16,022 bases of DNA from a virus. Its lineage: Duplodnaviria > Heunggongvirae > Uroviricota > Caudoviricetes. The notes under the pieces were generated by a model, which had not been told where the DNA came from, did no database searches, and was given only the letters and a program-made list of their open reading frames with translations. The DNA lies in IMG/VR virus record IMGVR_UViG_2526164666_000036, positions 1 to 16,022 of that record. One strand, given 5' to 3'. The position numbers were made by a program, and so were the translations under genes. Below are positions 3,913 to 12,589 of the stretch, in pieces; position 1 is the first letter of the stretch; each line of letters begins with the position of its first letter.

Positions 3913-4068
3913 TTACTCCTCAGGTTCGTAAGCTGTGAAGACAGCGACCTCCGTCTGGCCGGTTCGGATTCGTACCTCGCAGAGGTCTTTCCTCGTTACC
4001 AGTGCCGTCACTATGACGGTTAAACAGATGACGATCAGGGCGATTAACATCGCCTTTTGCTGCTTCAT
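3913..4068 (-). CDS. hokD: Hok-family type I toxin HokD (RelF), 51 aa
   Basis: Translation MKQQKAMLIALIVICLTVIVTALVTRKDLCEVRIRTGQTEVAVFTAYEPEE matches HokD as I recall it; AGGAG 9 nt upstream of ATG at 4068. The track ORF carries a 19-codon in-frame upstream extension. Confidence 0.9.
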   Translation of the reverse strand: MKQQKAMLIALIVICLTVIVTALVTRKDLCEVRIRTGQTEVAVFTAYEPEE

Positions 4069-4244
4069 AGCCTGCTTCTCCTTGCCTTTCGGCACGTAAG
4101 AGGCTAACCTACATGTGCAAGTCATAGATATGGCCTCAGATTAATGTTAAGCGTCTTGCCGGACGCGTAATGTTAACTGGGGCTTTTCTCTATCTGCCTT
4201 TTGGTGTTCATGCCTGAGACAGATAGCCTCAAGCACCCGCAGCA

Positions 4245-4359: not shown

Positions 4360-5289
4360 TCATCGATTCACCTCCTGCTCAATATTTTTAAGGTCATTTT
4401 CCGCATACAGTATTGCTGTCCTGGCTGCTCGTAACCGGGCTTTGGCATTTTTCTCTTCACGTTCAAGTTTTGCCACAGCTTCACGAAGAGCATCCCGCTT
4501 TGCATAGAGTGATTTAATCTCAGACACTATGTTTTCACCGTTTCTCGCACGGTCGAGAACAAGCTCGAACGGATCTAAAGCCAATCCGCATCGGTTACAG
4601 GTAATCGTACGATTCACTTCTGAAATTGTTGTACGGATATGCTGACAGCATTTTTGCTCGCCGCTTTTTCTGTCGGTTATCACAACGTTGAGGAGTCCTT
4701 CCTCCTCTGATTTTGGCTGTACCAGGGTGATAACATTGTCGACTTCATTTTTCATCAGTTCCCCCCCCTGCGGCGGTTCCGGTAGCGGCATCCAGTGAGT
4801 TGCCTGCTCAATACCATTACCCGGCTTAATCGTTGCATCTCCGCGCCGGAATGTGCTTCCTGTATAGCGTGCGGAGCATATTAGCGGTTCAACCAGAGAG
4901 CTATCGAAATTCACCGAAATAAGCACGTTCTGGTTCTTTTCAGGCATCCGCTCACTACAGCTTATCCAGCCATTCTTAATGCCACGATCCTGACTCTGAA
5001 GCATGGTGGCGCGGTGACACCAGATAATCCAGCCAAGCGCCATATCCCATGCCATGTATTCGCTATCGCCATTTTTTGCCCTGCGACGATCTACAGATTC
5101 CCCGAAACGCTTCTCCATAAATAATTCATAGGCTGCCCGTTCATCCGATACTGCTTCCAGTGACGCCAGTGCGATACGAAACACATTGGCAAGCAGGCTG
5201 TCTGAAGATTGGATATCGTGCGCCGGGTCGCTCAGGAAACCAGTGATGAATGATTTAATCTCCGCGTTTTCTCTGGTAATAGTGGTCAT
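4360..5289 (-). CDS. Phage protein with DUF551-like motif, C-terminal zinc ribbon and coiled coil, 309 aa
   Basis: ATG at 5289 preceded by AAGGAAAG; ATHWMPLPEPP motif resembles DUF551; CCQH...CNRCG then a heptad-like charged C-terminus (AKLEREEKNAKARLRAA). The track start at 5379 is a longer upstream extension. Confidence 0.7.
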   Translation of the reverse strand: MTTITRENAEIKSFITGFLSDPAHDIQSSDSLLANVFRIALASLEAVSDERAAYELFMEKRFGESVDRRRAKNGDSEYMAWDMALGWIIWCHRATMLQSQDRGIKNGWISCSERMPEKNQNVLISVNFDSSLVEPLICSARYTGSTFRRGDATIKPGNGIEQATHWMPLPEPPQGGELMKNEVDNVITLVQPKSEEEGLLNVVITDRKSGEQKCCQHIRTTISEVNRTITCNRCGLALDPFELVLDRARNGENIVSEIKSLYAKRDALREAVAKLEREEKNAKARLRAARTAILYAENDLKNIEQEVNR

Positions 5290-5290
5290 A

Positions 5291-5509
5291 TCAGCTTTCC
5301 TTATATGGGTTGATTTTGTTGTGCAGTGTGTTGAACGACGCCCATACCACGTCGTTATACAATTCAATAACTGGCTCAATTATTTTCCCGATTGCCCAGA
5401 CAAAAATTAGAGGGGATATCGGTATCATTAACACGATAAACAGAATGAGAAACAGAAATTCTGTTGTTCTACTCTTTCGTGGATATTTTTTTCTGAATAA
5501 TGTGACCAT
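5291..5509 (-). CDS. Possible small membrane protein, 72 aa
   Basis: AT-rich ORF with one hydrophobic segment (FLFLILFIVLMIPISPLIFVWAIG); its TGA overlaps the ATG of the downstream gene (ATGA). No convincing SD, so it may be non-coding spacer. Confidence 0.3.
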   Translation of the reverse strand: MVTLFRKKYPRKSRTTEFLFLILFIVLMIPISPLIFVWAIGKIIEPVIELYNDVVWASFNTLHNKINPYKES

Positions 5510-5636
5510 TCATTACCGCCCTTTCGGGCGGCCTCCTGATGTTTTGAGGGTGCAGGAATCCCTCCGGTTAAGGATTTAATAAAAATCACTTCTGATTTAA
5601 ATTTTCAGTGTTTTGTTGCCAGGTGATTTATCGCCT

Positions 5637-5948
5637 TTACGCTTCAGCCTTATTTCTCAGCCATACACAAACAGGACCATCTTCAGTGTCATGAATGGAA
5701 CCAATGAACCAGCCATCGCCCTCTGGTCGTTCCGGTTCCCATGCTGAAATATCAGGGCCATCTGCGTCCAGGTTAAAATCATCTTCATCCATAGTGCAGA
5801 TAGTCCACTGAAGATTATTTGCCTCCATCCACGCGTTAAATTCCTCTGTGGAAATATATTCACGACCTGCGCAAAACTTTTCATACTCAGGATGTGTCCA
5901 GCAGCCATATTCATCACGTACTACTGGTATTTCTTTAATTTCATTCAT
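5637..5948 (-). CDS. Hypothetical acidic protein, 103 aa
   Basis: ATG at 5948 preceded by GGGAGAA; start overlaps the upstream gene's stop by 8 nt. Confidence 0.55.
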   Translation of the reverse strand: MNEIKEIPVVRDEYGCWTHPEYEKFCAGREYISTEEFNAWMEANNLQWTICTMDEDDFNLDADGPDISAWEPERPEGDGWFIGSIHDTEDGPVCVWLRNKAEA

Positions 5949-6195
5949 TTCTGTTCTCCCACGTTTTCAGACTTTCACCACAGAACGGACAAAATGAAAC
6001 CCGCACTGGTGATTTAGAAAATTCACCGGAACGCAACATCACCAAATCAGGGCCGCGAGTTAAACTCTCATTCCAGATTTTGTATATCAGCAGACCTTTT
6101 CGCGTCGTGTATTCAGCATCATGCTCAAGGGATTTTGCCAGTGCCGTACACGGTTCTATCTTGTTGCCATAAACCTGGCATTTTGATTCATTCAC
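5941..6195 (-). CDS. Hypothetical protein with Cys pairs (possible zinc ribbon), 84 aa
   Basis: GTG start at 6195 preceded by AGGAGA; overlaps neighbours at both ends; contains KCQ...C and CPFCG. Confidence 0.5.
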   Translation of the reverse strand: MNESKCQVYGNKIEPCTALAKSLEHDAEYTTRKGLLIYKIWNESLTRGPDLVMLRSGEFSKSPVRVSFCPFCGESLKTWENRNE

Positions 6196-6469
6196 TGGTT
6201 TCTTTCTCCTGTCTGAACATCATGATCATCAGGCCATCTTTTGTTGCTACCCTGACTGTTGTTCCTGGCTCTATGCTGCCAAGGTCAAATGCGTCATAAA
6301 ATTCATTCAACGCTTTCTGGTGTCTCTCCTGTTTGCGTCGCTTTTCCCACTGCTTCAGAAAAACAGAGGTCACCCACTTCCCCGCGCTGAACATGATGTA
6401 AAACCAACCAAGCAGGGCCAACCCCGTGTTGAGGGCTGTATCAATCGTTATTGTTGTGTCGATATTCAC
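6188..6469 (-). CDS. Hypothetical single-pass membrane protein, 93 aa
   Basis: GTG start at 6469 overlapping the upstream stop (GTGA), preceded by AGGAGA; hydrophobic segment GLALLGWFYIMFSAG. Confidence 0.5.
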   Translation of the reverse strand: MNIDTTITIDTALNTGLALLGWFYIMFSAGKWVTSVFLKQWEKRRKQERHQKALNEFYDAFDLGSIEPGTTVRVATKDGLMIMMFRQEKETSE

Positions 6470-6762
6470 TGTGTCTTCTCCTGGAAAATAACTGCATGCC
6501 CCAGCTTCTCCGCCAGTGCCAGTTCCGCCTTAGCGCCTGCTGACCGCTGCCAGCCTTTCAGCATGTAAATCGCATCCACACAACGAATCATTGCCATGCA
6601 AATATCCATGTAGTGTGGCTGTGTCAGCCCGTCCGGAAGTACTGCCGGGGTTAAGACGGTATGCCCTTCCCGTTTCAGTTCCTCTTCCGCCTTGTGAAAC
6701 GCCTCACGGTTGAAATTTTCATATCCCGTCATTGGACCGGCAATATAAACTCTCACCCTCAC
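6466..6762 (-). CDS. DUF4406-like protein (nucleoside deoxyribosyltransferase-like fold), ~98 aa
   Basis: VYIAGPMTG...LTPAV...LKGWQRSAGAKAELALA pattern; GTG at 6762 overlaps the upstream stop (GTGA). The track's longer start at 6831 would overlap the upstream gene by 72 nt. Confidence 0.55.
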   Translation of the reverse strand: MRVRVYIAGPMTGYENFNREAFHKAEEELKREGHTVLTPAVLPDGLTQPHYMDICMAMIRCVDAIYMLKGWQRSAGAKAELALAEKLGHAVIFQEKTQ

Positions 6763-7151
6763 TCCATCACCTCCTGAAAGTTTCCCCGATAGAACGCCAG
6801 CACACGCTGCATAACTTCGCTCTGGCGGCACTCACGACAAATTATGTTCTGCCGTCTGTTGTAACGACGTATTTCTCCGTCAGGTAACTTTCGAATCAGT
6901 GTCGGGTCAGCAGCCTTCTCCGGTGTCTTACGCCATACGCGATACGCCTGCTCTGATGGAAATACCCCGCAACCAGAGAGCCAGACATCACCACTGGCCG
7001 CAAGCGCACCAGATAAACGACGAATAGCGGTCTTACTGACACCCGTTTTATCTGCCAGTTGTCGAAAAGTTTCTCGTCCGCTCAGGCGCACGAATTCCAC
7101 AATGCGCGCCTTCACTTCTTCCCGCTCTTCTGGTGTAAATTCTTTTGCCAT
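6759..7151 (-). CDS. Hypothetical HTH-containing phage protein, ~130 aa
   Basis: ATG at 7151 preceded by GGAGG 5 nt upstream (the track start at 7166 is TTG); helix-turn-helix-like stretch TFRQLADKTGVSKTAIRRL. Confidence 0.55.
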   Translation of the reverse strand: MAKEFTPEEREEVKARIVEFVRLSGRETFRQLADKTGVSKTAIRRLSGALAASGDVWLSGCGVFPSEQAYRVWRKTPEKAADPTLIRKLPDGEIRRYNRRQNIICRECRQSEVMQRVLAFYRGNFQEVME

Positions 7152-12531: not shown

Positions 12532-12589
12532 TTCTGGTGACATTTGGCGGTATCAGTTTTACTCCGTGACTGCTCTGCCGCCCTTTTTT
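12532..12589 (+). ncRNA. dicF: DicF small regulatory RNA
   Basis: TTCTGGTGACATTTGGCGGTATCAGTTTTACTCCGTGACTGCTCTGCCGCCCTTTTTT matches DicF as I recall it, apart from one or two changes near the 5' end; ends in its own GC-hairpin plus U-tract terminator; lies just upstream of dicB. Confidence 0.85.

Follow-up and report, generated by a model that had tools for sequence, protein, structure and literature searches.

The four small genes A to D, chained at positions 5637-6762 of the window (the whole 16,022-nucleotide stretch of viral DNA analyzed here), are very probably independent, optional accessory genes of a Rac/Stx-like lambdoid prophage, in a nin-like segment of its early-right (pR-type) operon. 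The first-pass annotation of this DNA had taken the overlapping stop and start codons that chain the genes to imply translational coupling and fixed stoichiometry, and had offered both nin-region genes and a functional unit as readings; in related prophages, the genes are found one without another and in shuffled combinations.

Over its full length, the window is 99.97% identical to a prophage of Escherichia coli O103 str. RM8385 and to close EHEC relatives, and it belongs to the Rac/Stx-like lambdoid prophages of EHEC. Its minus strand carries a lambdoid early-right operon in the order cro-like regulator, YdaT, O-like initiator, DnaC-like loader, DUF1627, DUF977, A, B, C, D, DUF4014, DUF551, hok/sok, DUF968, RusA, and Q. 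The four-gene block, which has the O-like, DnaC-like, DUF1627, and Ren-like DUF977 genes upstream and hok/sok, DUF968, RusA, and Q downstream, thus sits in the nin region, between the replication genes (with a Ren-like gene) and RusA/Q. Because DUF977 falls in a PHROG (phrog_142) labeled “Ren-like exclusion protein,” the four ORFs occupy the place of lambda ninA onwards, right after ren. Their DNA is already annotated in RefSeq, and RefSeq/PGAP calls the same four coding sequences in an E. coli O103 prophage of 100% identity. The genes of the chain and the gap at which it ends are as follows.

6759-7151, minus strand: DUF977 gene (Pfam DUF977, 141.7 bits; phrog_142, 3e-43; a CDS in PGAP)
6466-6762, minus strand: gene A (DUF4406), GTG start, 98 aa
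6188-6469, minus strand: gene B (DUF4752), GTG start, 93 aa
5941-6195, minus strand: gene C (Cys4 protein), GTG start, 84 aa
5637-5948, minus strand: gene D (acidic protein), ATG start, 103 aa
5510-5636, minus strand: noncoding gap of 127 nt, with a 72-nt stretch that is widely conserved and, just before the DUF4014 start, a GNRA-loop hairpin

The four ORFs of 84 to 103 aa, chained by stop/start overlaps, had been read correctly from the sequence in the first-pass annotation, as had the three GTG starts (A, B, and C) with good Shine-Dalgarno (SD) sites. A GGAG-type SD is present at every junction, 7 to 10 nt before the start and within the 3′ end of the preceding gene. The description of the chain as one of four genes needs extending: A to D are linked as described, but the DUF977 gene is joined to A in the same way as the others are joined to one another, by a GTGA overlap behind a ten-base AGGAGGTGAT site, and the chain therefore consists of five genes, starting at DUF977. 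It stops at the 127-nt gap before DUF4014, and no promoter-like or terminator-like sites were found on the minus strand inside the block. The junctions read as follows.

DUF977 to A: aggaggtgatgga-GTGA, 4-nt overlap
A to B: caggagaagacaca-GTGA, 4-nt overlap
B to C: caggagaaagaaacca-GTGAATGA, 8-nt overlap
C to D: gggagaacagaa-ATGAATGA, 8-nt overlap

The longest ORF for gene A (6466-6831, minus strand) begins with the GTG at 6831, which would give it a 73-nt overlap with DUF977. We place the start at 6762 rather than at 6831 because junction conservation and PGAP favor the shorter form; the start of A and its SD are kept across related loci, and naive longest-ORF calling gives a wrong annotation of this gene. 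Conserved homologues exist for all four proteins, in Pfam families DUF4406 (A) and DUF4752 (B) and in PHROGs 4030 (C) and 1372 (D).

Several features lie outside the genes of the chain. The 72-nt noncoding stretch (5509-5580, minus strand) recurs with 88 to 96% identity in Stx phages, Rac-type phages, and an Actinobacillus phage record, and a hairpin, CCGCCC-GAAA-GGGCGG (GNRA loop), sits between AGGAGG and the ATG of DUF4014, the start of which is at 5509. The stretch, which did not match an Rfam family, may act in mRNA processing, mRNA stability, or translation control. In an Rfam scan of the window, no RNA family was found within the four-gene block or next to it, and three were found elsewhere: a hok/sok type I toxin-antitoxin locus at 3913-4238 on the minus strand (sok at 4063-4238, with the adjoining Hok ORF at 3913-4125), the DicF antisense sRNA at 12532-12583 on the plus strand, adjoining dicB, and the prophage sRNA STnc100 at 812-1000 on the minus strand, downstream of Q. 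The Pas sRNAs, reported at most 10 kb from DUF1627 genes, were considered for the block and rejected, as the paper puts them beside esterase and holin genes. Near position 4761, within an ORF at 4360-5379 (minus strand), the window has one base fewer than E. coli RM8385, which joins the DUF551 CDS and the next CDS of 131 aa, separate in the PGAP annotation of RM8385, into a single ORF of 339 aa; a frameshift variant and a sequencing difference are the two possible explanations.

A passage of PMC8022706, with reference to Kroger and Hobom (1982) and Cheng et al. (1995), describes the nin genes of all lambdoid phages as exceptionally tightly packed, with ATGA stop/start overlaps; the lambdoid nin region is the “chain of interlinked genes” of Kroger and Hobom (1982). 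The block and the ren-nin region of lambda and P22 stand in the same place of the early-right operon, where they follow the replication genes and a Ren-like gene and precede rusA and Q, and they are alike in being made up of small nonconserved ORFs on one strand, with ATGA/GTGA overlaps and a content that varies between related phages. A shuffled array of the nin type is an already known phenomenon, and the alternative offered in the first-pass annotation, that these are nin-region genes, is supported by the gene order around the block and by the independent assortment described below. The block differs in that A to D are not homologues of the named lambda genes ninA to ninH and in that, compared with lambda/P22 nin, three of the four starts are GTG instead of ATG and two of the overlaps span 8 nt (RTGAATGA) rather than 4. 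P1-like plasmid prophages (D6 orf89-orf99 and P7 upf86.8-upf88.3) draw on the same gene pool, which includes DUF4406, DUF4752, a homologue of C (upf87.4), a homologue of D (orf96), and Ead/Ea22-like genes, and the accessory early genes of D6 and P7 are likewise chained, by 4-nt overlaps. All four families are present in D6, in another order and with genes between them (DUF4406 ... DUF4752-orf95-D-ppp-pdcB-C); in P7, the C homologue stands by itself, in an operon that is C1-controlled (C1-repressed).

We looked at how often the four genes occur together by a megablast search of 5,426 complete E. coli genomes, counting a gene as present at a query coverage of at least 80%. Some part of the block was found in 1,577 genomes and the whole block (at least 80%) in 18. 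Gene A was present in 1,218 genomes, the present allele of gene B in 24, gene C in 380 (with 122 places on plasmids), gene D in 870 (101 places on plasmids), and the C+D pair in 251, all of which are undercounts, that for B above all, since megablast misses diverged alleles. For this reason, the comparison was repeated at the protein level: IMG/VR loci were fetched for each anchor gene (260 loci), and the four proteins and 30 neighbor families were mapped onto them by tblastn. These samples consist of the top 80 matches for each anchor, which favor close relatives and contain many near-duplicates, and because of this bias we also give counts of distinct architectures. Among the best matches, 44 of the 58 usable A-anchored loci held A alone, 11 held AB, and 1 held ABCD; B stood alone in 13 of the 21 B-anchored loci, with ABCD in 3; CD made up 49 and C alone 13 of the 67 C-anchored loci; and the 60 D-anchored loci included CD (22), D alone (17), and A--D (12).

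Altogether, the 207 loci that were bracketed on both sides showed 121 distinct architectures. The first-pass annotation had tied the idea of a unit to the co-occurrence of the genes across prophages; 11 of the 15 possible subsets of A to D were seen, and ABCD were together in 7 of the 207 loci. Ead/Ea22-like cassettes, an SAM methyltransferase, and several small ORFs were interleaved among the four genes. The ABCD arrangement is also present in copies of only 90 to 93% identity, and therefore some blocks last for a time. In other genera (Kosakonia, Pantoea, Erwinia, Serratia, and others), no ORF of the A, B, or C family was found within 3.5 kb of D homologues at 32 loci, where C was sought with a sensitive family HMM and A with single-sequence phmmer, which may overlook divergent DUF4406 genes. 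Similarly, neither D (within 2.5 to 3 kb) nor B or A was found near three distant relatives of C. Separately, in-frame chimeras in public databases (P0169, P0172, P0018, and P0065) combine the N terminus of C with the C terminus of DUF4752, the N terminus of C with an Ead-like C terminus, or D with other ORFs. They suggest that the recombination in this segment extends to the inside of the genes, frameshifts in assemblies being an alternative source for some of them.

The junctions upstream of A, B, C, and D were extracted from all of the fetched IMG/VR loci (~260). Nearly every one of them had an RTGA-type overlap, whatever the neighbor, with the SD lying in the 3′ end of the gene upstream. 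This was so for A when preceded by DUF977 or c37, for B when preceded by A, DUF977, Ead, or c169, for C when preceded by DUF977, B, or c186, and for D when preceded by C, A, c109, c42, c62, or c26; the exception was the junction from the methyltransferase (MTase) to C, which reads GTGGGTAA. The overlaps exceed chance, and likeness to one or the other parental arrangement changes at the start/stop overlap itself. Since the same overlap is kept or rebuilt with any neighbor, we concluded that it is a property of the operon segment and not the sign of a fixed partnership. The overlaps and the internal SD sites make it reasonable to infer translational coupling by termination-reinitiation, but such coupling is a generic operon feature and does not show that the partnership is fixed.

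In the same set of loci (L002 to L261), unrelated upstream proteins (DUF977, A, B, and other cassettes) share similar tails, among them ...FQEVME, ...FQEKTQ, ...RQEKETSE, and ...RKGGNQ, each followed by the stop codon. The tails are similar because the last codons encode the SD and RTGA of the next gene, and the C termini are therefore partly shaped by the translation signals of the gene downstream. In a further reading, which we consider unlikely, the uniform SD+RTGA junction could serve as a standard “adaptor” that allows single-gene cassettes to be swapped without breaking translation, an idea that is near existing boundary-sequence proposals for lambdoid mosaicism.

A to D might be one functional unit, such as a membrane-associated superinfection-exclusion or defense module in which the overlaps enforce subunit stoichiometry; a membrane-associated exclusion module was one of the two possibilities raised in the first-pass annotation. 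The run of four stop/start overlaps, each with an internal SD site, would suit such a unit, as would the hydrophobic N-terminal segment of B, the exclusion label of the PHROG that contains the upstream DUF977, and the recurrence of the ABCD order in a few diverged loci. However, the subsets found in related prophages, the 7 loci and 18 genomes with all four genes compared with up to 1,218 genomes for a single one, the formation of the same type of overlap with at least 10 unrelated partners, and the D homologues that occur in other genera without A, B, or C all argue against it. A search of the defense models of PADLOC-DB, in which each of A to D matched 0 families at an E value of ≤0.01, likewise speaks against it. 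The co-occurrence data largely refute the four-gene unit, and we regard this reading as extremely unlikely.

Smaller groupings within the block can be weighed with the same data. A (DUF4406) and B (DUF4752) might be a pair made up of an enzyme and its membrane anchor, as B follows A in 11 distinct architectures, A precedes B in 11 of 21, and a DUF4406 gene is also found upstream of DUF4752 in phage D6. In D6, however, four genes lie between the two; A is without B in 44 of the 58 A-anchored loci and is present in 1,218 E. coli genomes versus 24 for the present allele of B (a figure in which megablast undercounts divergent B); and B also directly follows DUF977, Ead, c169, and c186. A pairing of A with B is therefore very improbable.

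The case for a two-gene functional pair made up of only C and D, with A and B as unrelated neighbors, is somewhat better, although we still consider it unlikely. D comes directly after C in 39 of the 51 distinct C architectures, an adjacency above the expectation for independence, of the 380 E. coli genomes that carry C, 251 (66%) have the pair, and the ATGAATGA junction is highly conserved. If C and D were a real two-protein pair in E. coli/Salmonella lambdoid prophages, acting, for example, in host takeover or antidefense, then their frequent adjacency and conserved junction would reflect function and not just linkage, but we doubt that this is so. A gene other than C precedes D in 28 of 67 architectures, and D is present in 870 genomes versus 251 for CD, such that 71% of the D-bearing genomes are without the contiguous pair. 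Furthermore, C occurs without D on P1/P7-type plasmids, two genes separate C and D in D6, where their order is reversed, the sensitive family HMM detected no C-family ORF within 3.5 kb of D at any of the 32 loci from other genera, and neither P7 nor the three distant C relatives have D within 2.5 to 3 kb. Physical linkage of neighboring cassettes among close relatives adequately explains the adjacency of C and D.

For none of the four proteins did sequence searches of the PDB give anything significant, a relative of A included, and none had a match in NCBIfam. The likeness of A to DUF4406, noted in the first-pass annotation, was confirmed by a full match to the Pfam family (PF14359; 125.8 bits versus a cutoff of 22, over profile positions 2 to 91 of 91). 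This match, a weaker one to Pfam DUF1937, and the annotation of phrog_355 (“nucleoside 2-deoxyribosyltransferase,” 1.5e-47) agree in relating A to nucleoside 2-deoxyribosyltransferase/DNPH1 (Rcl)-like enzymes, than which it is shorter (98 versus about 150 to 160 aa). Its SAGAKAEL stretch (S-x-G-x3-E-L) is one that we take, by eye, to resemble the catalytic-Glu site of DNPH1-type enzymes. A thus appears to be a small enzyme-like protein of the nucleoside 2-deoxyribosyltransferase-like superfamily; the biochemical roles given here for it and for B, C, and D are inferred.

B matches Pfam DUF4752 (PF15944) at 141.4 bits, versus a threshold of 27, over the whole profile (positions 1 to 84 of 84), as well as phrog_667, and its homologues were found in the Enterobacteriaceae only. 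Near its N terminus, a segment of moderate hydrophobicity (residues 12 to 30) precedes a basic stretch. The highest Kyte-Doolittle mean over 19 residues in B is 1.27 (ALNTGLALLGWFYIMFSAG), compared with 2.96 in the neighboring DUF4014 protein, and is below the usual cutoff for a membrane span of ~1.6. Membrane insertion of B as a single-pass protein is plausible, and B is possibly a membrane-anchored DUF4752 protein.

C matches phrog_4030, and a profile search showed its family to be larger than first apparent, with 147 cluster representatives at an E value of ≤1e-3. Its members are ~80 to 110 aa long and have in common the invariant cysteines C6 and C16 and an FCPFCG motif (residues 68 to 73 in C); among 50 diverse relatives, C6, C16, C69, P70, and C72 are invariant. 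C, described earlier as a Cys-pair protein, therefore has four invariant cysteines (C6, C16, C69, and C72); in a comparison with Cys4 zinc-ribbon-like proteins, its first pair is of the form C-x9-C, not CxxC. No Pfam match was found for C, its matches in Pfam and the PDB being nonsignificant, including those of the C-family profile against the PDB. A fold search was dropped because the AF2 model, with a pLDDT of 44, was too poor. C may be described as a putative Cys4 zinc-binding protein and its family, which is without a Pfam entry, as a candidate new zinc-binding domain family.

D was rightly called acidic, with a pI of 4.05. Like that of C, its family is absent from Pfam. It has the conserved motif W.P..P.GDGWFIGSIHDTEDGPVC.WLR, and R11, W70, P72, P75, W80, F81, G83, I85, H86, E89, and W96 are invariant in its alignment (A1). 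An alpha/beta fold is confidently predicted for D, for which no match was found in the PDB, and D would thus be an acidic protein with an orphan fold. The D domain is also found inside longer phage proteins of 151 to 543 aa. The possibility that D is the C-terminal domain of Ea22/Ead was rejected, as the Ead/Ea22-like ORFs form separate clusters and are distinct neighbors of D.

Taken together, these results suggest how the segment may work. A to D would be cotranscribed with the replication genes, and because each RTGA start overlaps the preceding stop, with the SD in the last codons upstream, ribosomes finishing one gene could reinitiate on the next. Tight packing is a general property of the segment, such that the junction between any two cassettes is rebuilt in the same form, with the mosaic breakpoints at the start/stop overlap itself. 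The array thus acts like a string of interchangeable single-gene cassettes, reshuffled by recombination among temperate enterobacterial phages. The frequent absence of A to D from related prophages gives no more than indirect support to the idea that they may be dispensable for lytic growth.

The result matters little beyond annotation. For curators, the Cys4 family of C is without a Pfam entry and the predicted fold of D is without a solved relative, and both are widespread in temperate enterobacterial phages. More generally, stop/start overlaps in a phage early operon do not count as evidence of a protein complex, a caution against the over-reading of similar chains of genes elsewhere.
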